Source of the DNA: Chloroflexota bacterium
GTDB lineage: Bacteria > Chloroflexota > UBA11872
NCBI GenBank assembly: GCA_965263075.1
Contig: CBDHGI010000006.1
Coordinates: forward strand, 2,790,101-2,854,100
DNA length: 64,000 nt
Reading direction: 5' to 3'
Within the stretch, counting starts at the first letter, position 1. The number at the start of each line of letters is the position of its first letter. This document shows, piece by piece, positions 5,941 to 60,785 of this stretch. The notes beneath the pieces were generated by a model. The model was not told the origin of the DNA. It saw only the letters and a program-made list of their open reading frames with translations, and ran no database searches. A program made the translations under genes and the position numbers.

Positions 5941-6768
5941 CTACTGATTCGCACTTTCGATGGTGCGCTCGTATCGCCGCTGCATTTCAGGTCCGCGCCA
6001 GTCCATGAACTCCTGTTCCACGGCGCGGGCGTTGTCCTCGGACGGTGGAAGCGGAATCTCAATGGTGGCCACCGAGATGCGGTCGGTTCCCCAGACATAG
6101 GCCGCCACCTCGCCCTTGCTGACGATGAGGTTCACGCCCACGTTGGCTTCCACCACCGGGACGCCGTTCTCACGTGCCCGCGCGATGACGGCCAGGTTCT
6201 GCTTGCGGCTGCGTGAGCCGTAGGAGGGAATCAGGATGACCTGAGCGCCGTCCATCACCTGGGCGCGGGCGATCAACGGATTCCAGCGGTCGTTGCAAAT
6301 CATGGTGCCCACGCGCGCCAACGGGGTATCGATGGCGTGCAAGTTGGGACCGAGGCGGTTGAAGTCCCAGTCGTCGGTGGCGCCTTCGGCGAGTTGCGTC
6401 TTGTAGTAGGTCCCGCAGTGTTCGCCGTCGGGTCCCAGGATGGCGGCGGCGTTGTAGACGCCGTCATCGCGTCGTTCGGCATAGCCGAAGCAGAGCACGA
6501 TGCTGAGTTCACGGGCCAGGTTCTTGAAGCGCTGGATGTAGGGACCGTCAGGCGGCTCGGCGATCTCCCACAGGTCGGCGCGAAGCTCCGGCTCGTGGAT
6601 GGCCTCCATGACCACGTAGCCCTCGAGAAAGCCCTCGGGGGCGACGACAAGCTCCGCGCCCTCCGCGGCTGCCCGGCGGACGTAGTCCTCCAACTTGTCG
6701 GCATTGGCGGGCTTGTCCCACTTCTTGGGCTTGATGGACAGCGCCGCCGCGCGAACTGATCGATACAT
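5941..6768 (-). CDS. Carbon-nitrogen hydrolase (nitrilase/amidase superfamily)
   Basis: Start MYRSVRAAAL. E-K-C catalytic triad context (VVAPEG..., ...KTQL..., TMICNDRWNP). Confidence 0.8.
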   Translation of the reverse strand: MYRSVRAAALSIKPKKWDKPANADKLEDYVRRAAAEGAELVVAPEGFLEGYVVMEAIHEPELRADLWEIAEPPDGPYIQRFKNLARELSIVLCFGYAERRDDGVYNAAAILGPDGEHCGTYYKTQLAEGATDDWDFNRLGPNLHAIDTPLARVGTMICNDRWNPLIARAQVMDGAQVILIPSYGSRSRKQNLAVIARARENGVPVVEANVGVNLIVSKGEVAAYVWGTDRISVATIEIPLPPSEDNARAVEQEFMDWRGPEMQRRYERTIESANQ

Positions 6769-6892
6769 GGCGTGGTCCTTTCGACCGCGAATCACCCGGC
6801 TCCGACGTCCTGACGCTGATTGCCCTGCCAACGGTTGTCAAACGTCTGTTCCGTCCCTGGCGGAGGCGGACACGTGCATTGCCTGGGGACGG

Positions 6893-7447
6893 TCAGCTTT
6901 CGGGGCGGTCGCGGGGGCCGAGCCAGATGTTTTCGGGGACGTTGACGTCGTGGTTCAGGGCGCGGGCGAGTTCGAAGAGGACGTCACTGAGGCGGTTGAG
7001 GAATACCGGGACGTGGGGGCTGACCGGGGCCAGGCCGGCCAGGCCAAAAACCTCGCGTTCGGCGCGGCGGCAGACGGCGCGGGCCAGGTTGACGCCGGCG
7101 GCGGCGGGCGTGCCGCCGGGCAGGATGAAGTGCTGGAGCGGGGGCAGGTCCGCCCGGTAGCGCTCCAGCCACTCGTCAAGCGTGGCGATGTCCGCCGGCG
7201 CGATGCGGTCGCCGCGGGCGCGGCGGCCGGGGTTGGCCAGGTCAGAGCCGAGAGCGAAGAGGCGGGTTTGCATCCAGGCCAGGCGGTCAAGGTGGTCGCC
7301 GGGCGGGCAGGCGCTCATCGCCACGCCGAGGGCCGAGTTGAACTCGTCAACGGCGCCGAGGGCGGCGATGCGGCCGTCCGTCTTGGACACACGCGCGCCG
7401 TCGAAGAGGCTGGTCTGGCCCTGGTCGCCATGGTGCTTGTGGGTCAT
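6893..7447 (-). CDS. ATP:cob(I)alamin adenosyltransferase, PduO-type
   Basis: Start MTHKHHGDQGQTSLFDGARVSKTD...LGAVDEFNSALG, the hallmark N-terminus of PduO-type adenosyltransferases. Confidence 0.8.
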   Translation of the reverse strand: MTHKHHGDQGQTSLFDGARVSKTDGRIAALGAVDEFNSALGVAMSACPPGDHLDRLAWMQTRLFALGSDLANPGRRARGDRIAPADIATLDEWLERYRADLPPLQHFILPGGTPAAAGVNLARAVCRRAEREVFGLAGLAPVSPHVPVFLNRLSDVLFELARALNHDVNVPENIWLGPRDRPES

Positions 7448-7504
7448 TGGCTTCCGCGGCCGGGCAGCCGAGGGGAATGGTTCATGTGACACATCGGCGC
7501 GGCG

Positions 7505-8977
7505 TCACGTGGGTCCGGTTGGGGCACGGAGAAACACACGGGCAGTGGCATCACCGCCGATGTCACTCCATTCGGAGTCGGGACGGGTCAGCCGACGAGC
7601 CAGAGGCGAGTCGGTCTCGATCACCAGAGCTTCGGTCTCGATTTCCGTGATTGTCTGGCGCCACTCGGGTCCGAGGCCTATCACCGTGAGGTAGTCCTCG
7701 AGCGCGTTTGGAACGAAGAGATCGAAGCGTCCGTCGATGAACACGAGCGCGTCCGGCCAAAGGGCCCAGGTGAGATACGCGCCCCAATGGTAGGTACTGA
7801 AGATTCGGGTAGCCCCAGTCTGCGCCACGAGGTCGCGGGCGGCGGCGGGCATGGGCACCACGGTGGGGCCGCTCAGCGTTCGCGGGCTGACGGCGACGGC
7901 CACGCCGATGGCCGCCGCGATTACTAGGGCGGCGGCGGCGCGAAGCGCCCAGATCGGCGGGCGCAGGCGGGGGACGGCGGTGAGCGCGAGCGGGCCGGCC
8001 AGCAGGAGCGGCGCCAGGACGGCGGCGAAGGGCATGACCTTGCGTGTGCTGTAGCCGGCGGCCAGCAGCACGGCCAGGAGGGCCAGGTCAACCAGCGTGA
8101 CGCGGCGATAGCGGACCAACAGCAGTACGGCTATTGACGCCAGGAAGATCGCGAACAACCACCAGGTCTCGCCGAAAGCCTCCGGCGGCCGCCAGTCGCT
8201 GACGAATCGACGGAACTCGCTGTCCCACAGAAAGAACGGCTGGGCGAGCACGCGCGGACCCGACGGATTGAGGGCAGGCGCGACGGTCGAAAGTACCGAG
8301 ACCACGGTGAACGTTCCCAGGCGTGTGCGGGGCCGTGGACCGACGAATGGCAGCGGTGCGCGCGCCCAGAGGGCCTCCAGGAATAGAGCGCCAAGTAGGG
8401 CGTAGCCGATGGGGAAGGAGGCGTGCACGTTGCCCCAGAACACGAACACGAGCGGCAACAGCCACACAACGCGCGAGCCGGTGCGGCGGTGGTGCAGCGC
8501 CAGAGACGCGGTGACGGCGGCGGCCAGCAGGCCGACGGCCAGCGGGCGGATGCCGGCGAACGGAAACAGAGGCAGGGAGGCGGCCACGAGCGCGACGACA
8601 CGCATCCAGGGGGCTACACCGTGGGCGGCCAGAACTCTCTCCAGCAGGCCCCAAATGAGGGCATAGACGGCGGCGGAGGCGAGGACTGCCGCGCCGACGC
8701 CTAGCTGGCTGACGAGCTGGAACATGGCCAGGGCGGGCAGCCACTCGTGCACCGTCCAGACCGCGTCTCCGGCGCTGAACGTGAAGGGATCTGGATATGG
8801 CAATGCGCCGCTGGTGGCGACGTAGCGCCCGTTGTTGAGGTGAACCCAGAGGTCGGCGTCCAGGGGCTGGGCGGCGGCCAGCGCGGCGATGGCCAGGATC
8901 GCGGCGGCCGGGGCTACGCCTATACCTCGACCAACGTTTGGGGAGGTTTGCTCGGCGGCCTGAAGCAGCGCAGGCAC
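7505..8977 (-). CDS. Polytopic membrane protein, possible GT-C fold glycosyl(mannosyl)transferase
   Basis: 490 aa with about 10 or more hydrophobic segments. An acidic DxD-like motif (PLDADLW) follows the first transmembrane segment, as in GT-C (ArnT/PMT-like) enzymes. Function inferred, not recognised by exact family. Confidence 0.5.
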   Translation of the reverse strand: MPALLQAAEQTSPNVGRGIGVAPAAAILAIAALAAAQPLDADLWVHLNNGRYVATSGALPYPDPFTFSAGDAVWTVHEWLPALAMFQLVSQLGVGAAVLASAAVYALIWGLLERVLAAHGVAPWMRVVALVAASLPLFPFAGIRPLAVGLLAAAVTASLALHHRRTGSRVVWLLPLVFVFWGNVHASFPIGYALLGALFLEALWARAPLPFVGPRPRTRLGTFTVVSVLSTVAPALNPSGPRVLAQPFFLWDSEFRRFVSDWRPPEAFGETWWLFAIFLASIAVLLLVRYRRVTLVDLALLAVLLAAGYSTRKVMPFAAVLAPLLLAGPLALTAVPRLRPPIWALRAAAALVIAAAIGVAVAVSPRTLSGPTVVPMPAAARDLVAQTGATRIFSTYHWGAYLTWALWPDALVFIDGRFDLFVPNALEDYLTVIGLGPEWRQTITEIETEALVIETDSPLARRLTRPDSEWSDIGGDATARVFLRAPTGPT

Positions 8978-30965: not shown

Positions 30966-33185
30966 CTATCCCTCGGCTGCTGCTCCTGGCGCCGCGACGG
31001 TGCGCCATTGTGAGACTTGGCCAGTCGAGCTGATCGCGGCGACGAGCCAGGCGCCTCCTGGCTGGGAAGCGTCGGCGGCAGCGATGTGGGTCTGGTGCAA
31101 CCCGGATGCGTGGCCCATTTCGGGTAGAAGACGGCGGGCGGCCCCACCGCCGTCTACGGCAGCCCAGACCTCGGCGATCGCACCGGCGCTGCCGGTTCCC
31201 AGTCGGTGAACCCCGTTGCCATCATCGACCGCGAAGCTTGAAGCGAGCAGGGGCCTGTGCTGGGTGGGCGGCGTCTGAAGCACGAACGTCGCGGTGTGGC
31301 CAGTAGGTGAGGCCCGGTGGCTCGTCGGCGCGTAGGCGACCCCGTGATCCGGATGTAGCGCGATGAGCCGCATCGCGGCCGCGGTTGCCCCGGCCAGAGG
31401 GTCGGGCACGTTCATCTGAAAGTGCCCGGCGTCGTCAGTCCGCGCCGCCTTGCCGGAATCGGCGCCGGCGGCGATCACCAGAGCCCCAGACACCGGAGCG
31501 CCTGTGCGGTCATGGACGTGTCCCGTCAGCGCGTGGCCGCCATCTCGCCAGCCGGAAAGAAAATGGGCAAGGTCCAGACGGTCGCGAGGCGTGAGGTGTG
31601 CTCCTGCGTGTGAGGCGTCGATCGTCGGTCGCGAGGTCCCGGCCAACCCCGGCGCATGGGCGCCTGCCGGGGTGACGCCGTGGCACGACGCGCACTGTGC
31701 GTGGTAGGTCTGGCGGCCGCGCTGGACGGTCGGCAACGCGGGGAGCCCGGACAGCGAGCCATCGATCACCGCCAGTCCGTAGCCGGGAAGGCTGAGGCTG
31801 ACGCCGTCGAACCAGGCCGAGGTCCACGGCGCGTTGCCACTCACCGTGGCCGCGCGCGCTGGTGGCAGGCCGGCCAGACGCAGCGTGCGCGGTTCCGGCG
31901 ACAAGTTCACCACGGCCGCGCGCGGTCCCTGCTCGGTGTTCACCACCAAGGCGTCCAGGTCCGTCCCGCCGACGCTCACGCGCACCAAACGGCCGGATCC
32001 CGTGACGAAACGCCGCATGAGTTGCATGACGCCGAACGCCGGTGTCGGCGGGTCGGCAAGCGTGCTGGACCACAGCCCAAAGTCGGGTTCGCCTCGCGGT
32101 GATCGTCCTGATGGGTCACGGGCGCCTTTGTAGACCAGCAGGCCGCTGGCGCCCTGGCGCACCGCGCGCAGGGTGGCCGAGGCCAGGAACGCGCCGTTGA
32201 CCGGCGCGTGCACGAGCGGATCGACGGCCAAATCGCCGCTGAAATTGATTTCCTCCACGTAGTGGGGCCGGCCGGCCGCAATCCTTGAGATCACGCGCGT
32301 ACGTTCTTCAAACCACGCCAGTCGCGTGCGCAGGACGTCAGCGGGGGTCGTCTCGCCGATCTGGTACATGCCGTACCAGTGCCAGGTCAGAAAGTCGTGG
32401 AAACTCGCCGTGTCCACGGCCCGCAGGTAGGCCGACCAGTCCAGGTCCGGAGCAGCACCGCAGACTCGGCTACCGTCTGGATTCAGCGTGGCGCCGGTGT
32501 CGATCACGTCCAGCGAAGGGCCGCCGAGGGCCACGACGCCAGATCCGAAGCGGTCAGCCACAGCGGCTCGCGCCGTGGCGTAGATCACGGCGTAGGCCGC
32601 TCCGTTGCCGCAGGCATAGTGCTGTCCGGCGTTCTGGTGATTATTTGGCTCGTTCCAGATCGTGTACGGCCAGGTCAGGGCGACTGGCCCGAAGTGGTTA
32701 CGTAGGCGCTCGATGGCAGCGGCAACATAGGTCGCGTAGCCGGCAATCCCGTCAGCGTTGAAGCGTTCGCTCTCGTGCTGCGAGCTCGGACTCCCGTCGG
32801 CGGCTGTTACCCAGGACGGCGCGGCCACGAAGCTCACCAACGGCGTGGCGCCGGCGTCCAGCACGCGTTGCACGAAGGCGGTGAGGAGATTCCAGTCCAT
32901 GTCGCCGTCGCCGACTGCCGCGCCCAGGAAGCGGTGGCCGAGCCAGACGCGTACGAGGTCGGCTCCAAACTGGCTGGCACGGTCGATCCCCCCGTCGCGG
33001 TAGAGATCGACGATCTCGTTCGTGCCCAGCTTGAAGTCGAGCGTTTGTGCGAAGCCAGTCGAGGGCTGGTCGAGATGAACCACGATTTCCGGCACATCCG
33101 AACCGCCAAGCGCCACAATGACCAGCAGCAGGGCGACTGCGAGCCGGGCCGCTCGGCACCAGCGTTTTGGCAGGCTGCCGCCCAC
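30966..33185 (-). CDS. Secreted multidomain protein: glycoside hydrolase (clan GH-A) + c-type cytochrome domain + carboxypeptidase-regulatory-like domain
   Basis: 739 aa. Signal peptide (AVALLLVIVALGGS). IWNEPNN motif (clan GH-A acid/base Glu). CASCHG heme-binding CXXCH motif around residue 460. A later beta-sandwich segment (GHVHDRTGAPVSGALVIAAG...TDDAGHFQM). Confidence 0.6.
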   Translation of the reverse strand: MGGSLPKRWCRAARLAVALLLVIVALGGSDVPEIVVHLDQPSTGFAQTLDFKLGTNEIVDLYRDGGIDRASQFGADLVRVWLGHRFLGAAVGDGDMDWNLLTAFVQRVLDAGATPLVSFVAAPSWVTAADGSPSSQHESERFNADGIAGYATYVAAAIERLRNHFGPVALTWPYTIWNEPNNHQNAGQHYACGNGAAYAVIYATARAAVADRFGSGVVALGGPSLDVIDTGATLNPDGSRVCGAAPDLDWSAYLRAVDTASFHDFLTWHWYGMYQIGETTPADVLRTRLAWFEERTRVISRIAAGRPHYVEEINFSGDLAVDPLVHAPVNGAFLASATLRAVRQGASGLLVYKGARDPSGRSPRGEPDFGLWSSTLADPPTPAFGVMQLMRRFVTGSGRLVRVSVGGTDLDALVVNTEQGPRAAVVNLSPEPRTLRLAGLPPARAATVSGNAPWTSAWFDGVSLSLPGYGLAVIDGSLSGLPALPTVQRGRQTYHAQCASCHGVTPAGAHAPGLAGTSRPTIDASHAGAHLTPRDRLDLAHFLSGWRDGGHALTGHVHDRTGAPVSGALVIAAGADSGKAARTDDAGHFQMNVPDPLAGATAAAMRLIALHPDHGVAYAPTSHRASPTGHTATFVLQTPPTQHRPLLASSFAVDDGNGVHRLGTGSAGAIAEVWAAVDGGGAARRLLPEMGHASGLHQTHIAAADASQPGGAWLVAAISSTGQVSQWRTVAAPGAAAEG

Positions 33186-33190
33186 CGAGG

Positions 33191-34195
33191 TCAGGTTCGA
33201 CTAACGACTTCGCGCTGCCCAGAGGCAGCTGACAGCCGAATTGCCGCCAGGACCTCCAGCAGATGGACGCTGTCTTCCGGCGGTGACTCGTTGGCGACGT
33301 CGCCGCTGATAACCGCCAGGAAGTGGTCGTCAGGATTGCTGCCGCCCGACAGCCCTTCGACTTCGCGCGTCGCCTTGGCCTCGAGGTCGTCCTCCAGGAT
33401 GGCTTCCACGCCGCCGGACGCCCAGTCGGCGCGAATCGCGCCGTTGCCGGCCACTACCGCCAGCCGTTCCCCGAAGGTATGACCGGTTCCGATGATCGAC
33501 AGCGTGCCGATGGCCCCGTTTTCGAAGAGCAGCACGGCTGCGCCGTCCACCTCGACCTCTAACTCGTAGGTGCGCATGCGCGCGTCCACTTCAACGATGC
33601 GCAGCCCGGTGGTCCAGAGCAGCATGTCCATGAGGTGGCTGCCGGAGTCGCTGAGCTGACCGCCGCCGCCCAGGGCCAGCGTGCCGCGCCACGTTCCCGC
33701 GGCGTTTGCGACCCAGGCCTGCCATTGACTGGCCTGCACATGGGTGATCTTGCCCATGTCGCCGCCCTGCAGGCGCTGGCGCATGTAGGTGTAGCCGGGG
33801 CTGAATCGCCGCTGAAAGCCGACGACCACATGGCGGTCAAGGGCCCTGGCGTGGTCGGTGATTTCCTGCGCCAGTTCTGGTGTGTGCGCCAAGGGCTTTT
33901 CGCACAGCACATGCGCTCCGGCGTTCAAGGCGCCCATGACATGCTCGTGATGCAGTGTGTGGGGCGTAGCAACCAGTGCCGCGTCCAGGTCGGCGGCTGC
34001 CAGGAGATCGCGCCAATCGGCGTAGGCCGGGATTGCGTCGAGGCCCTCCACACGCGAGCGTACGCGCGCGATGGACGCGTCAGAGGGGTCCGCCATGCCG
34101 ACAACCTCGACCTCGGGCATCGCGAGGAATCGCCCCAGGTGACCCGCGGACATGCCGCCAACGCCAATGGCGCCCAGTCGGTATGGCATAGACAT
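33191..34195 (-). CDS. Gfo/Idh/MocA family NAD(P)-dependent oxidoreductase
   Basis: 334 aa. Rossmann N-terminus (LGAIGVGGMSAGHL) and the EKP motif (VLCEKPLA). Confidence 0.85.
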   Translation of the reverse strand: MSMPYRLGAIGVGGMSAGHLGRFLAMPEVEVVGMADPSDASIARVRSRVEGLDAIPAYADWRDLLAAADLDAALVATPHTLHHEHVMGALNAGAHVLCEKPLAHTPELAQEITDHARALDRHVVVGFQRRFSPGYTYMRQRLQGGDMGKITHVQASQWQAWVANAAGTWRGTLALGGGGQLSDSGSHLMDMLLWTTGLRIVEVDARMRTYELEVEVDGAAVLLFENGAIGTLSIIGTGHTFGERLAVVAGNGAIRADWASGGVEAILEDDLEAKATREVEGLSGGSNPDDHFLAVISGDVANESPPEDSVHLLEVLAAIRLSAASGQREVVSRT

Positions 34196-34260: not shown

Positions 34261-34563
34261 TTATGCGTCGCGGGTTGTGGGGTCTCCAGGAGCGAATTGA
34301 CCGCCGTAGGGCAGCGGGAGGCGCTGCACGGTCTCGCGAAACGTCCCTCGTCCCTTCAGGAGGCCGTGCACGTCCCAGCCTTGGGATTCCAGTTGTTCCA
34401 GCACGTAGGCCAGTTCGTAGCGGTCGCCGGTTTCGTCGTCGATAAACGCGTCGGTCCAGCCCAGCTGGTACCGCGGCACAGGAAACGTGCCCTCGCCGTT
34501 GCGGCGCGGAATCTGAAACCGAAACTCGGATACACGGATGTGGCGACGGGGCTCGCTGCTCAT
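34261..34563 (-). CDS. Hypothetical protein
   Basis: About 100 aa ORF (start MSSEPRRHIRV) in the correct orientation inside a minus-strand gene cluster. No recognisable family. Confidence 0.35.
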   Translation of the reverse strand: MSSEPRRHIRVSEFRFQIPRRNGEGTFPVPRYQLGWTDAFIDDETGDRYELAYVLEQLESQGWDVHGLLKGRGTFRETVQRLPLPYGGQFAPGDPTTRDA

Positions 34564-34636
34564 ATAGGTTTCGGGTGATGGGCACGAAATGCCCGTACGG
34601 CTTGAAACCGATTGTGGAGAGCGCACTGGCTATGTG

Positions 34637-46760: not shown

Positions 46761-46923
46761 CGATGCAGGCAACGCTGGCAAGGATGGCGAGCTCGGGACG
46801 CTTGCGTGAACGGTGCGGCTGGCAGGGGTTGGGCGCGGGGAGTGGGTCGGTTTGACCTGGGTGCGGTAGCTTGCGGGCCGGACATAGGTGGCGAGATACA
46901 CGCACAGCAGCGGTGAGGGGCGG

Positions 46924-49017
46924 ATGAACGCGGGGACGCATGGGGAGTTGGCGGGCTTTGTCTGGAGCATTTGCAACCTGTTGCGGGGGCCGTATAAGCG
47001 GAACGAGTACCGGAAGGTGATTCTTCCGCTGACGGTGTTGCGGCGATTCGACTGCGTGCTGGCGGAGACCAAGGACGCGGTCCTGGCGGAGAACGAGAAG
47101 TACGGCGGCGAGGCCAGTTCCCAACTGCTGCAGGCCGCTTCAGGATTCCGCTTCTACAACGTCTCGGAGTTGGACTTCGAGCGGCTGCTGGACGACCCGA
47201 ACCTGATTGCGTCGAACCTGACCGGTTACATCAACCGATTCTCGGCCAACGTGCGCGAGATCTTCGAGCGATTCGGTTTCGAGGCACAGATCGCGAAGAT
47301 GGACGAGAAAAACCTGCTGTTCCAGGTCGTGCAGGCGTTTGCGCGGGTCGACCTGTCGCCCGAGCGTGTCGACAACATGCAGATGGGCTACGTGTTCGAG
47401 GAATTGATCCGGATAGGGGCAGAGCAGGCGAACGAAGAGGCGGGGGAGCACTTCACGCCGCGTGAGGTCATTCGGCTGATGGTGAGCTTGCTGCTGTCGC
47501 ATGAACCCGACCTAGCCAAGTCACACGTGGTGAAAACGATTTACGACCCGGCGTGTGGTACGGGCGGGATGTTGTCGGTTTCCGAGGACTTTCTGAGGGA
47601 GCACAACAGCACCGCGAATCCGTTTCTCTTCGGGCAGGACCACAATGACGAGGTCTGGGCGGTCTGCGCCTCGGACATGCTGATCAAGGGCGAAAACGCC
47701 GAGAACATCGTCCTGGGCGACAGCTTCACGGCCGACGGGTATGCGCGCCGGTCCGACGGTCGGCGCTACACGTTCGACTACATGCTTGCGAATCCACCGT
47801 TTGGCGTTGAGTGGAAGCAACAGCGGCGTGAGATCGAACTGGAACGGGATTCACTGGGCTTCGACGGGCGATTCGGGGCGGGGCTGCCGCGGATCAATGA
47901 CGGGGCGTTGCTGTTCCTGCAGCACATGCTCTCGAAGATGCAGGCGCCTGAAGACGGCGGCAGCCGGATTGCGATCGTCTTCAACGGGTCTCCGTTGTTC
48001 ACGGGCGACGCGGGGAGCGGGGAGAGCGAAATCCGGCGGTGGATCATCGAGAACGACTGGCTGGAAGCCATCGTGGCGCTGCCGGATCAACTCTTCTACA
48101 ACACCGGGATCTCGACCTACATCTGGGTGCTAACCAACCGAAAGGAAGATCGCCGGCTGCGAAAGGTGCAACTGATCGACGGGCGGCAGTTTTTCGTGAA
48201 GATGCGCAGGAGCCTGGGCAACAAGCGCAACGAACTTTCCGCAGGCCAGATCGACGACCTGACGCGGATTCACGGCGATTTCCTGGACGGCGAGACGCGG
48301 GAACTGACGGATGAAGATCCAGTGACACATCAGCTGCGGACAAGGCCGCGCGTGGTGAGCAAGGTGTTTGCGAACGACGACTTTGGCTATCACAAGATCA
48401 CGGTCGAACGTCCGTTGCGGTTGAACTTCGCGGCGACGCCGGAGCGGATTGCGGGCATCGAGGATGAGCGGTCGTTTCAGAATCTGGCGCGGAGCCCGAA
48501 GCGAGCCGGTCCGGCGCACGATGAGGAAGTAGCTGAGGGTTGCAAGCGGCAAGAAGCGATTCGGATCCTGCTGACCTTTCTAGGAAAAGCAACCGGCGGC
48601 AAGGTGATACGAGACCGCGAAGAGCTGCGGATGGCTCTACGCGAATTGTGCAGCCATGCGGGCTTGCGGCTGTCGGCCGGGGAGCGAAAGGCAATCGAGT
48701 CGGCGCTGAGCGAGCGGGATCCGGACGCTGCCATCTGTCGCGGCAGCCGGGGCAAGATCGAGCCGGACACCGAGTTGCGCGACACAGAGACGGTGCCGCT
48801 GGGTGAGGACATCGACAACTACATGGCGCGGGAGGTGCTGCCGCACGTTCCGGACGCCTGGGTAGACGAGAGCAAGACGAAGGTCGGCTACGAGATACCG
48901 CTAAACCGGCACTTCTACGTCTACGAGCCGCCGCGCGCGCTCGACGAGATCAGGTGCGACTTGCAGCAGCTGGAACGGGGGATCGCGGGCCTGATCTCCG
49001 ATGTCGTGAGAAGCTGA
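46924..49017 (+). CDS. hsdM: Type I restriction-modification system, DNA methyltransferase subunit M (with about 200-aa C-terminal extension)
   Basis: Start MNAGTHGELAGFVWSICNLLRG (ATG 46924, preceded by GGTGAGGGG). HsdM N-terminal domain, AdoMet motif (DPACGTGGML) and catalytic NPPF (LANPPFG). Extra C-terminal region of about 200 aa. Confidence 0.9.
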   Translation: MNAGTHGELAGFVWSICNLLRGPYKRNEYRKVILPLTVLRRFDCVLAETKDAVLAENEKYGGEASSQLLQAASGFRFYNVSELDFERLLDDPNLIASNLTGYINRFSANVREIFERFGFEAQIAKMDEKNLLFQVVQAFARVDLSPERVDNMQMGYVFEELIRIGAEQANEEAGEHFTPREVIRLMVSLLLSHEPDLAKSHVVKTIYDPACGTGGMLSVSEDFLREHNSTANPFLFGQDHNDEVWAVCASDMLIKGENAENIVLGDSFTADGYARRSDGRRYTFDYMLANPPFGVEWKQQRREIELERDSLGFDGRFGAGLPRINDGALLFLQHMLSKMQAPEDGGSRIAIVFNGSPLFTGDAGSGESEIRRWIIENDWLEAIVALPDQLFYNTGISTYIWVLTNRKEDRRLRKVQLIDGRQFFVKMRRSLGNKRNELSAGQIDDLTRIHGDFLDGETRELTDEDPVTHQLRTRPRVVSKVFANDDFGYHKITVERPLRLNFAATPERIAGIEDERSFQNLARSPKRAGPAHDEEVAEGCKRQEAIRILLTFLGKATGGKVIRDREELRMALRELCSHAGLRLSAGERKAIESALSERDPDAAICRGSRGKIEPDTELRDTETVPLGEDIDNYMAREVLPHVPDAWVDESKTKVGYEIPLNRHFYVYEPPRALDEIRCDLQQLERGIAGLISDVVRS

Positions 49018-49066
49018 CGGCGTGACCAGGACGTACCGATCCGACGCGAATCGGGCCGCCTAATCC

Positions 49067-49267
49067 ATGCCGAAGGTGCGGGACGCGATCCGGATGGTGG
49101 AGCGCGACGGCTGGCACCATGTGACCACGCGAGGGAGCCACCGGCAGTTCCGCCACCCAGTCAAGCCGGGCAAGGTCACGATTCCGGGCAAACCGGGCGA
49201 CGACGTGGGGCCGAAGCTCTGGGCCAGTATCATGAAGCAGGCTGGCCTCGAGAGAGAACGTCGATGA
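49067..49267 (+). CDS. hicA: HicA-family toxin (mRNA interferase), type II TA
   Basis: 66 aa. ...VERDGWHHVTTRGSHRQFRHPVKPGKVTIPGKPGDDV..., the typical HicA/YcfA fold signature. Confidence 0.85.
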   Translation: MPKVRDAIRMVERDGWHHVTTRGSHRQFRHPVKPGKVTIPGKPGDDVGPKLWASIMKQAGLERERR

Positions 49268-49608
49268 AGCTCACGTACGCCGTCGTCTTCGAGCAGACGC
49301 CCAACAACTACGCGGCCTATGTGCCGGACGTCCCGGGCTGCGTCAGCACCGGCAAGAGCTGGGACGAGATGCTGGCGATGATCCGCGAGGCGCTGGCGTT
49401 CCACATCGAGACGATCCTGGAGGATGGGGAGCCGCTCCCCGAGCCGAGGATGTCTATCGACGAGGCCATCGCGAACCACAGCGAACCCATCGCCGAGGAC
49501 GTGCTCAACTCCTACCTGGAGTTCGGCGAGCCCGGCCCCACGATCTCGACCCGGTTTGAGATGGTTGAGATTGAGGTTCCCGCCCCGCAGGCTGTTCAGG
49601 TGGGCTGA
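49264..49608 (+). CDS. hicB: HicB-family antitoxin (UPF0150), type II TA
   Basis: 114 aa; overlaps the hicA stop (ATGA). MKLTYAVVFEQTPNNYAAYVPDVPGCVSTGKSWDEMLAMIREAL, the HicB N-terminal RNase-H-like fold signature. Confidence 0.8.
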   Translation: MKLTYAVVFEQTPNNYAAYVPDVPGCVSTGKSWDEMLAMIREALAFHIETILEDGEPLPEPRMSIDEAIANHSEPIAEDVLNSYLEFGEPGPTISTRFEMVEIEVPAPQAVQVG

Positions 49609-49702
49609 CGGACACTCGACGGGGAGCGTTGAGGTGGCCACGGGATCCGCCGACGCGCATCGATGTGACGCGGTCAAGACCGTGAGCGAGTCACGCACGA
49701 CC

Positions 49703-51073
49703 ATGCGCGCCTACCCTCACTACCGCGACTTCGGCGTCGAGTGGCTCGGTGAGGTGCCGGAACATTGGACCTCGGAACAGCTTGGACGCCTCGGCTCGTT
49801 CTCAAAGGGCAGCGGCGGCACGAAAGAAGACGAGGTCGAAGACGGAGTTCCCTGCGTTCGCTACGGGGACCTCTACACAGTGCACCAGTTCCACATCAAG
49901 GAGACCCGGGCAAACATCTCCGAGGACAGCGCAGCCAATTACACGGCAATCCGATACGGGGACCTCTTGTTTGCCGGGTCGGGTGAGACCCTTGAGGAAA
50001 TAGGCAAGTCAGCTTCCAATCTGGTTGGCGGCCCGGCGTATTGCGGCGGGGACGTGATCCTCTTTCGTCCGTCAATCGAGACTGAGGCCACTTTTCTTGG
50101 TTACGCCGCAGATTGCGCTCCTGCGGCTTACCAAAAGGCATGCATGGGGCGAGGCGTCACCGTCATGCACATCTACTCCAGCGAGCTCAAGTACATGGTC
50201 GTGCCGCTCCCACCCCTCGACGAGCAGCGCGCAATTGCCGCGTTTCTGGACCGGGAGACGGAGCGGATCGATGCGTTGGTGGAGAAGAAGCGGTTGTTGA
50301 TCGAGCGGTTGGAGGAGTACCGGACGGCGCTGATCACGCGCACGGTGACGCGGGGGCTGCCGCCCGAGGCGGCGCGCGCCGCCGGGCTGGACCCGTCGCC
50401 GCGGTTGAAGGCTTCGGGGGCGGAGTGGCTAGGGGTCGTTCCAGAGCATTGGGAGGTAAAGGCGCTGAAGTGGGAGACGCCTGTTCAACGTGGGGCTTCG
50501 CCGCGGCCAATTGACGACGAAGCCTATTTCGATAACGACGGCTCACACGCCTGGGTACGAATCGCCGATGTGACCGCAGCTGGTATGTATCTGAATCGCA
50601 CGACACAGCGGCTCTCTGAACTAGGAGTCTCCCTAAGCGTGCCGCTAGAGCCAGGGGAGCTTGTTTTGAGCATTGCTGGATCAGTGGGTAAGCCCTGTAT
50701 CACGAAGATCGATTGCTGCATTCACGACGGGTTCGTCTATTTCCCACAATGGACGGGGGACGTTCGGTACCTGTTCTATGTGTTTGCCTCAGGTGAGCCC
50801 TACAAGGGACTGGGGAAACTAGGCACCCAGCTGAACCTGAACACTGACACAGTCGGTTCAATCTCAGTAGCAATACCTCCAGTAGACGAGCAGGCAGCGA
50901 TTGCGGACTACTTGACCACTGAGAACGCCGAGATTGAGAGCTCGTTGGAGTCGGTCCGCGAAGCCGTCGAACGGCTACAGGAATTTCGGGCAGCCCTCAT
51001 CACCGCCGCCGTAACCGGCAAGATCGACGTGCGCGAAGCCGCGCAAGCGCCGGTCGCTGCAATGTTGGCGTAA
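49703..51073 (+). CDS. hsdS: Type I restriction-modification system specificity subunit S
   Basis: Start MRAYPHYRDFGVEWLGEVPEHW. Two target-recognition domains separated by conserved coiled-coil regions (LPPLDEQRAIAAFLDRETERID... and IPPVDEQAAIADYLTTENAEIE...). Confidence 0.9.
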   Translation: MRAYPHYRDFGVEWLGEVPEHWTSEQLGRLGSFSKGSGGTKEDEVEDGVPCVRYGDLYTVHQFHIKETRANISEDSAANYTAIRYGDLLFAGSGETLEEIGKSASNLVGGPAYCGGDVILFRPSIETEATFLGYAADCAPAAYQKACMGRGVTVMHIYSSELKYMVVPLPPLDEQRAIAAFLDRETERIDALVEKKRLLIERLEEYRTALITRTVTRGLPPEAARAAGLDPSPRLKASGAEWLGVVPEHWEVKALKWETPVQRGASPRPIDDEAYFDNDGSHAWVRIADVTAAGMYLNRTTQRLSELGVSLSVPLEPGELVLSIAGSVGKPCITKIDCCIHDGFVYFPQWTGDVRYLFYVFASGEPYKGLGKLGTQLNLNTDTVGSISVAIPPVDEQAAIADYLTTENAEIESSLESVREAVERLQEFRAALITAAVTGKIDVREAAQAPVAAMLA

Positions 51074-54000
51074 ATGACCAGCCAAACCAACGAGGCGGCC
51101 TTCGAGTCGACCGTTGAGGACATGCTGCTCGAGGGCGGCTGGAACTCAGGCAACCGGTTGGAATGGGACGCGGTGCAAGCTCTCTTTCCGGCGCGTGTCG
51201 TCGCGTTCTTGCAGGCGACGCAGCCCGAACAGTGGGCAGCGATGGCTGGATTGCACGGCGAGAAGCTGAAAGCGCGGATCGTGGACGCGCTGGCCAAGGA
51301 ACTGGTCCTGAAGGGCATGCTGGACGTGCTGCGCCACGGGTTCAAGTTCTACGGCAAGACGTTCCGGCTGGCCTATTTCAAACCGGCGCACGGGCTGAAC
51401 CCGGAGGCGCTGGCGCAGTTCGAGCGCAACGACCTGACGGTCACGCGGCAGGTTGCCTACAACCCGAACACCAACGAAACCTTGGACCTGGTGTTTGCGC
51501 TCAACGGCGTGCCGGTGGCCACGTGTGAGTTGAAGAACCCGATGACGGGTCAGTCCTGGAAGAGCGCGGTTCGGCAGTACAAGCAGGACCGTGACCCTAC
51601 CGCTCCAATCTTCAAATTCCAGAAGCGGGCGCTGGTGCACTTTGCCGCCGATCCCGACGAAGTTCACATGACGACGCGACTGGCCGGGGAGAAAACCCGA
51701 TTCCTGCCCTTCAACCGGGGGAGCCGGCCCGGCGAGATTCAATGCGGGGCGGGCAACCCGCCGCATGCTGCGGGGTACCGCACGGGTTACTTCTGGCAGG
51801 GGGTGCTGGAACGCGAGCGGTTCCTGGACATTCTCGGCTCCTACATGTTCGTGGAACGCCGCGACGAGAAGGTCGAGGACGCGAAGGGCGCACGAACGGT
51901 CAAGCGGGAGACGGTGATCTTTCCGCGCTATCACCAACTGGATTCAGTCGACCGCCTGGTGACGACCGCGGCAGCGGATGGTCCGGGACGCAACTACCTG
52001 ATTCAGCACTCAGCTGGGAGCGGCAAGACGAACAGCATCTCGTGGCTGTCGCACCGGCTGGCGAGCCTGCACGACGCCGACGAGCAGAAGATCTACCAGT
52101 GCGTGGTGGTGATCACAGACCGGCGCGTGCTTGACCGACAATTGCAAGACGCGATCTACCAGATCGAGCACGCGCAGGGCGTGGTGAAGGCGATCGATCA
52201 GGATTCCAAGCAGCTGGCGACCGCGCTGGTGGACGGGACGATGATCGTGATTACGACGCTGCAGAAGTTTCCGTTCGTGATGAAGGGTCTGCTGCGGATC
52301 GCGGGGGCCGACGAGCCGGACGCCGCGAGCGCGGCCGAGCGGGCGCAGGCCGAGTCCTGGAGCAAGGCAATTGCCGGGCGTCGATACGCAGTGATCGTGG
52401 ACGAGGCGCACTCCAGCCAGACGGGCGAGAGCGCGCGGGAAATGAAGGCGGTACTCGGGTCCAAGGCGCAGGCAGCCGAGGAGGAAGGGGACGAGGACTG
52501 GGAAGACGGGATCAATGCGGTGATCGAATCGCGCGGACCGCAGCCGAATCTCTCGTTCTTTGCGTTCACGGCGACACCCAAGGGGAAGACGTTAGAGGTG
52601 TTCGGGCGGCCGGGTCCCAGCGGCAAACCTGAGCCGTTCCACGTCTACAGCATGCGTCAGGCGATCGAGGAAGAGTTCATCCTGGACGTGCTGGGGCGGT
52701 ACACCGACTACGACACGTACTACCGGCTGGTGAAGCAGGCGGCGGAGGACCCGGAGTTTCCCAAGCGGCGGGCGGCCTCGGAGCTGGCGAAGTTCATGCA
52801 GCTGCACGAGTACAACCTGGCGCAGAAAGCCGAAGTGATCGTGGAGCACTTCCGCAACAACGTGCGGCACCAGATGGGCGGCAAGGCGAAGGCGATGGTG
52901 GTGACCTCGGGCCGGCTGCACGCGGTGCGCTACATGCAGGCCTTTCAGCGGTACATCGCCGAGAAGGAGTACGAGGACGTGCGGCCGCTGGTGGCCTTCA
53001 GCGGCACGGTGCGGGATCCGGACACGGGCGAGGAGTTCACCGAGCCGAGCATGAACTGGGACGGGGTGACGGGGAAGCCGATCAGCGAATCGGCGTTGCC
53101 GGGCCGGTTCGCCTCGCCGGACTACCAGATTCTGCTGGTGGCGGAGAAGTACCAGACCGGGTTCGACCAACCGTTGTTGCAGGCGATGTACGTGGACAAG
53201 CGGCTGGACGGGGTGCAGGCGGTACAGACGCTCTCACGGCTGAACCGTATGGCGCCGGGGAAGGAACCGCCGTTCGTGCTGGACTTCGTGAACGACCCGG
53301 AGGACATCCGCGACGCGTTCAAGCCGTACTTCGACCAGACGGAACTGCTGGACGAATCGGACCCGCACAAGCTGGAAGTGCTGAAGCACGAACTGGACCA
53401 GATGCAGGTTTACCACTGGGAAGAGGTGGAGGCGTTCGCGAGGGTGTTCTACCTGCCAGTGGCGAAGCAGCGGAAGCAGGATCACGCGCGGCTGGAAAAG
53501 GCGCTGCAGCCAGCGCGGGGCCGGTTCGGGGCGCTGGACGAGGAGGGCCAGACCGAGTTCCGCGACCGGCTAGCGGCGTTCGCGAACCTGTACGCGTTCC
53601 TGAGCCAGATCATTCCCTATGGCGACAGCGAGCATGAGCGGCTGTATTCGTTCGGGCGGGCGCTGCTGCCGTACCTGCAGGAGGACAGTGAGCGGGAACA
53701 GATTGACCTGGGGGACGACGTGGAGCTGGCGTATTACCGGCTGCAACAGGTGACTGAGGGGGCGATCAGCCTGGGCGAGGGTGAAGGCGCCTACGTGGTG
53801 AGCCCGACGGAGACCGGCACGGGCGACCCGGAGGAAGACAAGGCGCCGCTGTCGGAGATTATCGAGCGGCTGAACGAGCGGTTTGGGACGAACTTCACGG
53901 ACGCGGACCGGTTTTTCTTTGAGCAGGTGAAGGCGCAGGCGGTTCAGGACGAAACGGTGCGCGAGACGGCGCGGGCGAATCCGCTGGATAAGTTCAGCCT

Positions 54001-54172
54001 GGGGGTTCGGGATCAGATTTCTGATCTGATGATTGCGCGGATGAGTGAGAACGATTCGCTGGTGAAGCGGTACCTGGAGGAGACGGAGTTTCAAAATCTC
54101 GCGTATGAGGTGTTGGCGAAGGAGATATTTGCGGCGGTGCGGGGTGGTGAGGCGGGGGTGGCCGGCGGATAG
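51074..54172 (+). CDS. hsdR: Type I restriction-modification system endonuclease subunit R
   Basis: 1032 aa. ATG directly follows the hsdS stop. N-terminal nuclease domain, SF2 helicase motifs (QHSAGSGKT; DEAH-like VIVDEAHSSQ) and a C-terminal helical domain. Confidence 0.95.
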   Translation: MTSQTNEAAFESTVEDMLLEGGWNSGNRLEWDAVQALFPARVVAFLQATQPEQWAAMAGLHGEKLKARIVDALAKELVLKGMLDVLRHGFKFYGKTFRLAYFKPAHGLNPEALAQFERNDLTVTRQVAYNPNTNETLDLVFALNGVPVATCELKNPMTGQSWKSAVRQYKQDRDPTAPIFKFQKRALVHFAADPDEVHMTTRLAGEKTRFLPFNRGSRPGEIQCGAGNPPHAAGYRTGYFWQGVLERERFLDILGSYMFVERRDEKVEDAKGARTVKRETVIFPRYHQLDSVDRLVTTAAADGPGRNYLIQHSAGSGKTNSISWLSHRLASLHDADEQKIYQCVVVITDRRVLDRQLQDAIYQIEHAQGVVKAIDQDSKQLATALVDGTMIVITTLQKFPFVMKGLLRIAGADEPDAASAAERAQAESWSKAIAGRRYAVIVDEAHSSQTGESAREMKAVLGSKAQAAEEEGDEDWEDGINAVIESRGPQPNLSFFAFTATPKGKTLEVFGRPGPSGKPEPFHVYSMRQAIEEEFILDVLGRYTDYDTYYRLVKQAAEDPEFPKRRAASELAKFMQLHEYNLAQKAEVIVEHFRNNVRHQMGGKAKAMVVTSGRLHAVRYMQAFQRYIAEKEYEDVRPLVAFSGTVRDPDTGEEFTEPSMNWDGVTGKPISESALPGRFASPDYQILLVAEKYQTGFDQPLLQAMYVDKRLDGVQAVQTLSRLNRMAPGKEPPFVLDFVNDPEDIRDAFKPYFDQTELLDESDPHKLEVLKHELDQMQVYHWEEVEAFARVFYLPVAKQRKQDHARLEKALQPARGRFGALDEEGQTEFRDRLAAFANLYAFLSQIIPYGDSEHERLYSFGRALLPYLQEDSEREQIDLGDDVELAYYRLQQVTEGAISLGEGEGAYVVSPTETGTGDPEEDKAPLSEIIERLNERFGTNFTDADRFFFEQVKAQAVQDETVRETARANPLDKFSLGVRDQISDLMIARMSENDSLVKRYLEETEFQNLAYEVLAKEIFAAVRGGEAGVAGG

Positions 54173-57718: not shown

Positions 57719-58012
57719 GGCGAGAGTACGAATGACTTCAGGGTGCCGAATGGCCGCAGCGCTATCCGGGACGCCTCGACAGGAAGACCCCTCACCGATT
57801 GTCGGCGGGGACGCCGACATCTGCCTCTCCCCCAGGAGAGGGAAAGAACGCCGCCCCGGAGCTAGCTTGGCGACTGACAGCGTCGCTTTCCCGCAAGGAT
57901 CGGAAGGAAGAGGCGTGTCTCCTCAGCGTTCATGGCTCCGCACGCAGATGCTCGCCTACCAGGGTCGCGAGCAACGACGGCGGTTCAGTTCAGGAGAGGG
58001 GAGTCGAGCGGC

Positions 58013-60490
58013 GTGACCGACGACTACGTGGCCGATCAGGACATCCAGCCCATCGACATCGTCGAGGAGATGGAGACCTCGTATATCGACTATGCGATGA
58101 GCACTATCGTCGCGCGGGCTATTCCGGATGTGCGCGACGGGCTGAAGCCGGTGCATCGCCGGTTGCTGTATTCGATGGACGAAATCTCGGCCACGCCCAC
58201 TGCGGCGTACCGCAAGTCGGCGCGGGTGGTGGGCGACACGATGGGGAAGTACCACCCGCACGGCGACCAGGCGCTGTACGACGCGCTGGTGCGGATGGCG
58301 CAGCCGTTTTCGATTCGGTATCCGCTGGTGGACGGGCAGGGCAATTTCGGGTCGGTGGACGGTGATCCGGCGGCGGCCATGCGGTACACGGAAACGCGGC
58401 TCACGCGGCTGGCGGCCGCGATGCTGGACGACCTGGACCGCGACACGGTCGACTTTGTCGACAACTTCGACGGCACCGCCGAGATGCCGGAGGTGTTGCC
58501 GTCGGTGGTGCCGAATCTGCTGATCAATGGGTCCACCGGCATAGCGGTAGGCATGGCGACCAGCATCCCGCCGCACAACCTGCGCGAGGTGGGACGGGCC
58601 ATCGAGCACTACATCGAGAACCCCGAGGCCACGTCGCGCGACCTGATGCGCTTTGTGCGCGGGCCTGATTTCCCGACGGGCGGAATCATCGTGGGCGCGG
58701 AGGGCATCGAGCAGGCCTACACGCAGGGTCGCGGGCGGGTCAGCGTGCGCGCCGTCGTGAACGTGGAAGAAGTACGCGGCACCACGATGGCGCTGGTGGT
58801 GTCGGAGATTCCCTACCTGGTGAACAAGGCCAGGCTGGTCGAAAAGATTGCCTCGCTGGTGCGAGACAAGGTCGTTGCGGGCGTGCGCGACATCCGCGAC
58901 GAGTCGGACCGGCATGGCATGCGCGTGGTGGTGGAACTGCGTGGGGACGCGCGGCCGGCGGCGGTGCTGAATCAGCTCTACAAGCACACGGCGCTGCAGT
59001 CGACCTTCAGCATCAACAACCTGGCGCTGGTGGACGGGCAGCCGGAACAGCTGCCGTTGCGCCGATTCGTCGAACTCTTCGTGCAGCACCGGCAGACCGT
59101 GGTGCGTCGCCGGACTGAGTTTGATCTGAAAAAGGCCCAGGCGCGCGAGCACTTGCTGGAAGGCTATGTCATCGCGCTGGACGACATAGACAAGGTGATC
59201 GCGATCATTCGCGCGGCGGACGACACGGAAATGGCCCGTAACGGTTTGATGCAGGAGTTTGGGCTGTCCGAGATCCAGGCCAACGCGATCCTGGACATGC
59301 AGCTGCGGCGGCTGGTGCGGCTGGAGCGCGAGCAGATTCTGGCAGAGCTGGATCAAGTGCGCGCGACGATCCGGGACCTGCAGGAGACCCTGGCCGACGA
59401 GACCCGCATCCTGGGGATCATTCGAGACGAGACGCGCGAGATAGTCAAGCGCTTCGGTAACGAGCGCCTAACGGAGATTCAGCGCGAGGCCTCCGGCGAC
59501 TTCAACGAGGAAGACCTGGTGGCCGACCAGGACTGCCTGATCACCATGTCGTCGCGCGGCTACGTGAAGCGGGTACCGGCCAACACGTACCGAAGGCAGG
59601 GTCGGGGCGGCAAGGGGATCCGCGGCTTCCGCAGCAAGACCGGCGGGGTGGTGGAGCATTTCCTGGTGGCCAACACGCACGACCACCTGCTGTTCTTCAC
59701 GAATAGGGGCAAGGTCTACCGGCTGCGGGCCTACGAACTGCCGGAGCAAGGGCGCGACGCCCAGGGCCACAGCCTGATCAATCTGCTGGCTATCGAGCAA
59801 GGCGAGCGCGCGACGGCGGTGCTGGCGATTCCCAACTTCGAGGCCGGCGACTACCTGGTGTTTGGGACGCGGCAGGGCGAGGTCAAACGGAGCGCGCTGA
59901 CGCAGTTCGTGTCGATCCGAACCAACGGGCTGCTGGCAATGGACCTGGACGAGGACGACGAACTGGTGTGGGTGCGGCTGGGGACGGACGAAACCCACGC
60001 GATGTTTTTCACGCGCAACGGGATGTCCATTCGCTTCGCGCTGGACGAGATTCGCGCGAGCGGTCGCACCAGCGGGGGCGTGCGGGCCATCCGGCTCGCG
60101 GACGACGATGAGGTCGCGGCCATGGACCTGACGCAGGACGACGGGTTTGTGCTGCTGGTGACGTCCAATGGCTACGGCAAGAAAGTGGCCGTGTCCGAGT
60201 TCCGGCCGCAGGGGCGTCCAGGACAGGGATCGAAGGCGATCAACCTCAGCGAGAAGACGGGTGAGGTGGCCGACGCCCGGACGCTGCTGATGGAGAACGA
60301 GGAGATCGCGCTGGTGTCCTCGGACGGTCAGGTGATGCGCTGCGGGCTGTCGAGTGTCCGTCCGATCAAGCGGGCGGCGGCCGGGGTGATCATCATGCGC
60401 ATGGACGAGGGCGTGGATCTGCTGCGGGTGGCGCGACTGGCTGATGGGCGCGACGGGGAGAACGGAGAGCGGGCGCGGCGATCTGGCTGA
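58013..60490 (+). CDS. gyrA: DNA gyrase subunit A
   Basis: GTG start ([30 protein letters not shown]...). Active-site Tyr region (AAMRYTE), GyrA-box in the beta-pinwheel C-terminal domain (QGRGGKG). Confidence 0.95.
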
Positions 60491-60785
60491 CCTGTATGGA
60501 CTGGCTGCGACGCTGGTGGACTGTTAGCGGCGCTTTGATACTCGTTCGCGGGGGGCCAGATTCTCCAGCCCATGGTTGTCCAACCCGACGAATCTCCAAT
60601 TCGCAGGGAACGAACAGCGCTCGCGCGACGTATCTATTCCTGAGGGCCTTCTGGAAGCGGTTGACGTTGCTGCACCAAGGACTCATGGCGACGCCGGTAG
60701 TCTTGAAGGTGAGCCACGCCGATGTAGCGTTGATGCGTCACTTCCCGGCTGCCTCCGACAGTTTGACCAGGCGAAGGAGCATGTG

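Follow-up and report, generated by a model that had tools for sequence, protein, structure and literature searches.

Gene organization and domain architecture of the locus

We analysed a window of 64,000 nucleotides from a Chloroflexota bacterium (contig CBDHGI010000006.1, positions 2,790,101 to 2,854,100), in which the minus strand encodes a predicted GH39-like glycosidase fused to a c-type cytochrome-like domain, next to an oxidoreductase of the Gfo/Idh/MocA family. The fusion gene is a 739-residue open reading frame (ORF) with a GTG start (30966..33185), delineated by ORF calling, Pfam, family alignment and AlphaFold2, whereas the oxidoreductase is a 334-residue ORF (33191..34195) lying 5 bp upstream on the same strand. 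Both ORFs lie at the coordinates given in the original prediction, and translation confirmed the motif IWNEPNN (residues 176-182, 32640-32660 of the minus strand) and the CXXCH motif further downstream. An identical 739-residue product is called by public gene callers on an ENA metagenome contig.

The full-length AlphaFold2 model, computed from a 26-sequence alignment, has a predicted local distance difference test (pLDDT) score of 83.6 and a predicted template modelling score of 0.87. It displays six recognizable segments: a helix (residues 7-26), a (β/α)8 barrel (residues ~50-395), a β-sandwich (residues 399-475), a helical domain (residues 485-544) and two further β-sandwiches (residues 550-636 and 646-731). 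In addition, an N-terminal strand (residues 34-41) probably joins the β-sandwich of residues 399-475 in the model.

The N-terminus (residues 1-28; 33102..33185, minus strand) comprises a positively charged region followed by the hydrophobic helix, as indicated by AlphaFold2 and Kyte-Doolittle analysis. In a Kyte-Doolittle window, residues 12-29 form the most hydrophobic stretch and the sole strong one of the protein. The full-length homologues have a comparable N-terminus, and several carry an AAAD-type cleavage-like site. The helix could serve as a Sec signal peptide or as a signal anchor; the signal peptide of the original prediction is one of these two readings. The glycosidase is predicted from this helix to be exported, either secreted or anchored at its N-terminus.

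At the other end of the protein, residues 548-640 (31266..31544, minus strand) form a CarboxypepD_reg-like (transthyretin-like) β-sandwich. The Pfam profile PF13620 matches residues 553-594 with 27.1 bits, under its cut-off of 32.3, but reaches 38.8 bits in the homologue P0029, and the AlphaFold2 strands span residues 550-636, in agreement with the carboxypeptidase-regulatory-like domain that had been proposed. Residues 641-739 together with the stop codon (30966..31265, minus strand) encode a second C-terminal β-sandwich, which has no Pfam match, with strands between residues 646 and 731 modelled at a pLDDT of mostly 83-93.

The 739-residue protein contains 5 Cys and 29 His in total, and the mature protein only four Cys: Cys498 and Cys501 of the CXXCH, plus Cys192 and Cys242, both invariant. 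Cys192 (32610-32612) lies 13 residues past the predicted acid/base Glu, beside a low-confidence loop (residues 184-189), and may form a disulfide with Cys242 (32460-32462) close to the active site.

A predicted clan GH-A catalytic domain closest to GH39

The catalytic region (residues 34-476; 31758..33086, minus strand) is predicted to consist of a clan GH-A (β/α)8 barrel with an accessory side β-sandwich, with glycoside hydrolase (GH) family 39 as its nearest relative by both sequence and fold. Searching PDB sequences with the whole protein as a single query gave marginal matches only, and profiles were used instead. With a profile of the catalytic region, GH39 xylosidases were found at an E-value of ~1e-12, and the WNEPN motif containing Glu179 coincided with the same motif in the xylosidases 4ekj and 6uqj of this family. 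Structural similarity search against the PDB using Foldseek retrieved clan GH-A enzymes that likewise possess a side sandwich, including GH79 enzymes (β-glucuronidase and heparanase), GH30 xylanases and a GH39 xylosidase, with E-values down to 2.6e-17. The Pfam profile Glyco_hydro_39 scores 36-44 bits in the homologues P0022, P0029 and P0036, over its cut-off of 26, and 18.5 bits in the window protein, under it. The sequence and fold comparisons agree with the clan GH-A assignment of the original prediction.

Seven residues, Arg79, Asn178, Glu179, His269, Tyr271, Glu312 and Trp372, are invariant within the family as well as in P0062 and P0196, two distantly related GH39-like proteins, and we take them as the canonical clan GH-A set. 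Asn178, Glu179 and Pro180 are invariant in 26 family sequences in addition to these two relatives. Because the invariant residues match the clan GH-A set, Glu179 in the WNEPN motif (32649..32651, minus strand) is predicted to be the acid/base, in line with the GH39 alignment, and Glu312 in the VEEIN motif (residues 310-314 by translation; Glu312 at 32250..32252, minus strand) the nucleophile. Glu312 is located on the AlphaFold2 strand of residues 308-314, which we read as β7 of the barrel. The glycosidase domain looks catalytically competent. Retaining double displacement is an established trait of the clan, and we extend it to this protein from its predicted clan membership.

A monohaem class I cytochrome c-like domain with predicted His/His ligation

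Residues 485-547 (31545..31733, minus strand) form a monohaem class I cytochrome c-like domain that contains the CASCH motif (31680..31694, minus strand), in which alignment and translation identify Cys498 and Cys501 as the predicted sites of haem attachment and His502 as the predicted proximal ligand. This motif is the sole CXXCH among the ~40 main ORFs of the window, the chance expectation in the 739-residue protein being ~0.0013 from its own composition, and CXXCH is kept in 47 of the 49 near-full-length family clusters. Pfam matches Cytochrom_C to residues 487-527 with 24.0 bits, over the cut-off of 21.3, and Cytochrome_CBB3 to residues 486-517 with 23.3 bits, under the cut-off of 27. Searched against the sequences of the PDB, a profile built from residues 478-548 of 25 family members matched numerous class I cytochromes c, including cytochrome c4/c552 (1h1o, E 1.6e-8), CcoP, QcrC and TsdB, and the alignments span the N-terminal helix, the CXXCH, the loop after it and the C-terminal helix. 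Modelled alone, the domain has a pLDDT of 82. As far as sequence and fold tell, the CXXCH is embedded in a class I cytochrome c fold of 60-70 residues.

The cytochrome of the original prediction is thus upheld in its fold, with a conserved His standing in place of the usual distal Met. No Met is conserved anywhere in the cytochrome domain, and most family sequences lack any Met there. By contrast, His526 (31608..31610, minus strand) is invariant in 25 of 25 aligned CXXCH-bearing sequences, and the distal His lies 28 residues after the first Cys in all 47 CXXCH-carrying clusters. In a HMMER alignment, which provides positional evidence only, His526 falls on His491 of domain III of Geobacter PgcA (8qk0), the distal ligand of the bis-His haem in its crystal structure (PMC11520253). 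Given the absence of a conserved Met and an invariant His526 at fixed spacing that aligns on His491, we predict a His502/His526 (His/His) haem ligation in which Met has been replaced. A His/His haem usually has a lower potential than a His/Met one. The PgcA domains have potentials between about -48 and -106 mV (PMC11520253), compared to +193 mV for the His/Met domain CjX183 (PMC8981238).

Distribution of the fusion and selective constraint

A word-indexed search retrieved 50 clusters with 45-98% identity, nearly all of them full-length. Only a few have a named source, which is given as Chloroflexota or Chloroflexi. In a species-level genome collection, the gene occurs in 21 GTDB species, all represented by uncultured Chloroflexota metagenome-assembled genomes, so that the architecture sought in related genomes was indeed found there. 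Several isolate names, among them COS2_bin, RHO3_bin and SB0662_bin, seem to denote sponge metagenome bins, and the cluster P0025 is also present in Tara data. An exhaustive search of 1.84 billion representatives at 50% identity yielded one full-length representative (P0046) and one fragment. The next matches to the catalytic region had E-values of ~1e-26 or worse with partial coverage, and most matches of this search were unrelated CarboxypepD_reg repeat proteins. The fusion family is therefore narrow, with ~50 clusters and 21 GTDB species of uncultured Chloroflexota.

We examined ten distant matches, of which eight cover the catalytic region. All eight score over the Pfam GH39 threshold, and none of them (0/8) has a cytochrome domain; one, P0063, runs from GH39 directly into CarboxypepD_reg. 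As the nearest GH39-like relatives are devoid of the cytochrome, the domain is a lineage-specific insertion. Using the alignment of the cytochrome domain as a query, we found no homologous proteins at E <= 0.001.

Two candidates for a similar fusion were discarded: P0103 is a multi-cytochrome protein without a GH domain, and P0152, which matches the cytochrome-CarboxypepD_reg region, shows only sigma-70 and CarboxypepD_reg repeats in Pfam.

Pairwise ratios of nonsynonymous to synonymous substitution rates (dN/dS) are 0.08-0.13 for the GH barrel, 0.12-0.34 for the cytochrome domain and 0.08-0.59 for the other accessory domains, indicating purifying selection on the cytochrome domain, comparable in strength to that on the other accessory domains. 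P0031 and P0032, which belong to one sublineage, have lost the proximal His (CVSCT and CVSAT, respectively), a 19-residue loop and the distal His, and keep the NEPN and EEIN motifs in addition to the helices flanking the haem site. Since the proximal His, the loop and the distal His were lost together, the three features act as one haem-binding unit. Moreover, the retention of the catalytic residues without the haem ligands indicates that the haem is dispensable for the hydrolase, at least in this sublineage.

The Gfo/Idh/MocA neighbour and the genomic context

The 334-residue neighbour was assigned by Pfam to the Gfo/Idh/MocA family of NAD(P) sugar oxidoreductases, as had been proposed, with an N-terminal Rossmann domain (PF01408, E 3.8e-23) and a C-terminal α/β domain (PF22725, E 1.9e-20). 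It scores far under every NCBIfam equivalog cut-off (for example, 112 versus 355 bits) and matches no defined subfamily. Its nearest solved relatives are sugar C2/C3 dehydrogenases, including DgpA, levoglucosan dehydrogenase, WlbA and inositol dehydrogenases. The protein has no hydrophobic N-terminus or export signal, its longest ORF opening directly with the Rossmann motif, and is therefore cytoplasmic. A c-type cytochrome must be extracytoplasmic to receive haem. With the Gfo protein and the haem on opposite sides of the membrane, the former could not reach the latter.

The two genes are probably co-transcribed, as judged from their common strand and the 5-bp gap. An extra locus, L001/L002, carries the two genes turned around together with respect to the surrounding block, which supports a two-gene operon. 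The Gfo gene lies directly upstream of the glycosidase gene in 13 of the 21 species loci. It is absent from the other eight (L003, L017, L018, L020-L022, L024 and L026), which form a clade whose glycosidase is 45-49% identical to that of the window.

The gene order of the locus is conserved, and consists of argH, GT2, GT4, aspartokinase, bifunctional nuclease, the optional Gfo gene, the glycosidase, a 100-residue hypothetical protein, methyltransferase, sugar nucleotidyltransferase, glyoxalase-like protein and NrdR. In all loci the glycosidase gene occupies the same place in this syntenic block; it is vertically inherited within a housekeeping block and apparently single-copy. In the eight loci without Gfo, the glycosidase is retained in the opposite orientation, GT4 is missing in all eight and GT2 in seven (it is kept in L017), and the rest of the block is syntenic. 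As Gfo, GT4 and GT2 are missing together while the glycosidase stays, Gfo co-varies with the glycosyltransferases and not with the glycosidase. Among the annotated neighbours, in the window and the related loci, we found no sugar transporter, regulator, lytic polysaccharide monooxygenase (LPMO) or exported dehydrogenase, nor any dehydrogenase dependent on pyrroloquinoline quinone (PQQ) or flavin.

The small ORF next to the unit (34261-34626, minus strand) has a probable internal Met start that would give a product of ~100 residues, and public callers predict 100 residues. It adjoins the glycosidase/Gfo unit in 20 of the 21 species loci, the remaining one (L008) ending before that side, and shows 52-95% identity among loci without any Pfam match. 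At 6001-8600 of the locus L006 (OZ240251.1), a 95%-identical orthologue of the glycosidase lacks the usual stop codon and continues for ~127 codons more, giving an 866-residue ORF. The read-through extension is antisense to the bifunctional-nuclease gene, and reflects either a stop-loss or an assembly error.

Other features of the window

On the plus strand, a complete type I restriction-modification system occupies 46888-54172, with hsdM at 46888-49017, hsdS at 49424-51073 and hsdR at 51074-54172. This stretch has a G+C content of 0.62-0.65, compared to ~0.68 upstream, with a strong GC skew, and is possibly an acquired island. At 3101-5569 (plus strand), an 822-residue protein combines sugar nucleotidyltransferase, hexapeptide-repeat and phosphoglucomutase/phosphomannomutase domains, and looks like a multifunctional enzyme of sugar-nucleotide synthesis. 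A 490-residue ORF at 7505-8977 (minus strand), which Pfam does not match at E <= 1e-5, has a coding-like third-position G+C of 0.81. A 636-residue protein encoded at 60576-62486 (plus strand), directly after gyrA (57932-60490), contains DUF4349 and two DUF11 repeats, and is probably located at the cell surface.

Possible roles of the haem domain

We consider it probable, with considerable room for doubt, that the gene encodes an exported GH39-type retaining glycosidase of clan GH-A equipped with an accessory His/His haem c domain, next to a cytoplasmic Gfo protein. The glycosidase would act by double-displacement hydrolysis, with Glu179 as the acid/base and Glu312 as the nucleophile. The cytochrome is inserted between the side β-sandwich and the CarboxypepD_reg-like β-sandwich via a short conserved linker, and would carry a haem c on Cys498 and Cys501, with His502 as the proximal and His526 as the distal ligand of a low-spin His/His centre. 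The potential of this haem would probably be under that of His/Met relatives. The haem domain would be accessory and stand outside the hydrolytic chemistry; our best guess at its role, which is speculative, is a one-electron relay or a redox-responsive module at the cell surface. The Gfo protein, if functionally linked, would act on an imported sugar product and would not serve as an electron donor to the haem.

Several points count against this proposal. The Glyco_hydro_39 profile matches residues 101-336 of the window protein with 18.5 bits, compared to the PF01229 cut-off of 26, and PgcA domain III is matched only weakly (E 0.15). The attached haem, its His/His ligation, the glycosidase activity and the substrate all stand as predictions, and no donor or acceptor for an electron relay was identified among the annotated neighbours or within the polypeptide. 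The proposal is further challenged by the idea that the cytochrome-like domain is a structural spacer, a relic of an ancient fusion in which the haem, if bound, has no redox function. P0031 and P0032, which keep both flanking helices without any haem ligand, the packing of the domain in a confident multi-domain model via a short conserved linker, and the lack of an evident redox partner would all fit a spacer. Nevertheless, a mere spacer would hardly explain why 47 of 49 clusters, some as low as 45% identical, keep the CXXCH and the distal His at invariant spacing, why dN/dS values of 0.12-0.34 indicate continuing constraint, or why three ligand features were lost together as for one haem-binding unit, and we regard it as quite unlikely.

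The original prediction pointed to an oxidative glycan-processing module, by analogy with cellobiose dehydrogenase and LPMO electron donors. In such a module, the cytochrome would exchange electrons with an oxidative carbohydrate enzyme (an LPMO or dehydrogenase), and the Gfo protein would be the redox partner. CjX183 does reduce an LPMO in vitro (PMC8981238), the Gfo and glycosidase genes are 5 bp apart and inverted as a unit in L001/L002, and glycoside or sugar C3 dehydrogenases are among the solved proteins closest to Gfo. However, the Gfo protein lacks an export signal and would reside in another compartment than the haem, and its gene is absent from eight of the 21 species that keep the fusion, all within a housekeeping block. 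The polypeptide contains no dehydrogenase domain, and neither an LPMO nor a PQQ or flavin dehydrogenase nor a sugar transporter was found among the annotated neighbours; the analogy thus fails because there is no electron source in the same compartment. Moreover, the predicted His/His ligation is unlike the His/Met ligation of X183 (CjX183, +193 mV; PMC8981238), the TtX183 domains failed to activate their cognate LPMO (PMC10916295), and the haem ligands are lost in the sublineage of P0031 and P0032, which retains the hydrolase residues. We therefore regard such a module as very unlikely. An envelope or exopolysaccharide hydrolase resembling PslG, whose task would be to trim the glycan product of the nearby GT2, GT4, sugar nucleotidyltransferase, methyltransferase and Gfo protein (the last as a nucleotide-sugar dehydrogenase) and in which the haem would again be accessory, agrees with an apparently single-copy, vertically inherited gene in a housekeeping block with GT2, GT4 and NTP_transferase, with the lack of a nearby transporter or regulator typical of catabolic loci, and with the WlbA-like (UDP-sugar 3-dehydrogenase) relatives of Gfo. 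Yet the glycosidase is kept in the eight species that lack Gfo, with GT4 missing in eight and GT2 in seven of them, which speaks against dependence; the entire block is syntenic, so that proximity weighs little; and the best sequence and fold matches are xylosidase-type GH39 enzymes, PslG not being among them. We thus consider this role unlikely, though worth keeping in mind. It is likewise rather unlikely, in our estimate, that the haem takes a direct functional part, either in a redox-gated cell-surface glycosidase, where a low-potential His/His haem would act possibly via Cys192/Cys242, or as a docking and electron-relay point for an extracellular system of oxidation or electron transfer in sponge-associated Chloroflexota.

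Glycoside hydrolases are regarded as redox-independent. That purifying selection has maintained a c-type cytochrome, rigidly integrated in an enzyme of the GH39 type, throughout an entire lineage implies a useful role of the haem at the cell surface. If the haem regulates hydrolysis or relays electrons, glycan processing would be tied to the redox state in marine and sponge Chloroflexota, which are uncultured yet abundant, and the domain would be a new accessory module for the repertoire of carbohydrate-active enzymes. A functional haem would also make this protein the first example of a c-type cytochrome cooperating with a canonical glycoside hydrolase, whereas a merely structural one would leave an ordinary enzyme that is notable just for its domain fusion.

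Comparison with known systems

To our knowledge, the carbohydrate-active proteins described to date with a cytochrome domain are dehydrogenases (cellobiose dehydrogenase and AA12) or redox proteins bearing carbohydrate-binding modules (X183). In a full-text literature search, of incomplete coverage and no proof of novelty, no fusion between a canonical GH domain and a c-type cytochrome came to light.

For the catalytic domain, we compared the GH39 β-xylosidases of Geobacillus stearothermophilus (XynB1, 1w91/2bs9), Xanthomonas (6uqj), Caulobacter (4ekj) and Thermoanaerobacterium (1px8), to which the window protein is 15-16% identical over the aligned regions. The family of the window protein differs in its own invariant motifs PSSxHESE, YACG and WHWYGM, and adds the cytochrome and two further β-sandwiches. 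Compared to the GH39 xylosidases, which are cytoplasmic, the window protein is predicted to be exported.

For the cytochrome, the nearest haem modules are X183 domains and PgcA domain III. The X183 domains, known from Cbp2D of Cellvibrio japonicus and TERTU_2913 of Teredinibacter turnerae (7b21, 8q1v and 8q1w), have His/Met ligation, stabilizing disulfides and long flexible linkers, which connect them to carbohydrate-binding modules and redox domains but not to GH domains (PMC8981238, PMC10916295). By contrast, the window protein has a distal His, a short conserved linker and a GH partner, and its domain does not qualify as an X183 module. Domain III of PgcA from Geobacter sulfurreducens (8qk0) is likewise a c-type domain with a single haem and three helices in ~65 residues, and has the bis-His ligation that is predicted in our case (PMC11520253). 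However, PgcA binds three haems, serves in extracellular electron transfer, has (PT)x linkers and lacks an enzyme domain.

Similar to cellobiose dehydrogenase and AA12 pyranose dehydrogenase, the window protein would act on carbohydrates outside the cell with a cytochrome domain covalently attached. In those enzymes, a b-type AA8 cytochrome receives electrons from a flavin or PQQ dehydrogenase (PMC8981238), whereas the window protein combines a c-type cytochrome with a hydrolase partner that has no redox cofactor; no flavin, PQQ or NAD domain was found in the 739-residue protein by Pfam or in the AlphaFold2 model. A mechanism like that of cellobiose dehydrogenase was accordingly rejected, as the polypeptide has no dehydrogenase domain and the Gfo protein is predicted to be cytoplasmic.

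The Verrucomicrobia-like metagenomic protein Lac161_ORF7 also combines a C-terminal Cytochrom_C domain (CxxCH) with a glycosidase activity, namely lactose hydrolysis (PMC5342196). Its catalytic part is a 'membrane-bound dehydrogenase' domain (TIGR02604) with HEAT repeats, and has no similarity to known GH families (PMC5342196). Unlike Lac161_ORF7, the window protein carries its cytochrome-like domain on a catalytic domain predicted to be a canonical clan GH-A barrel.

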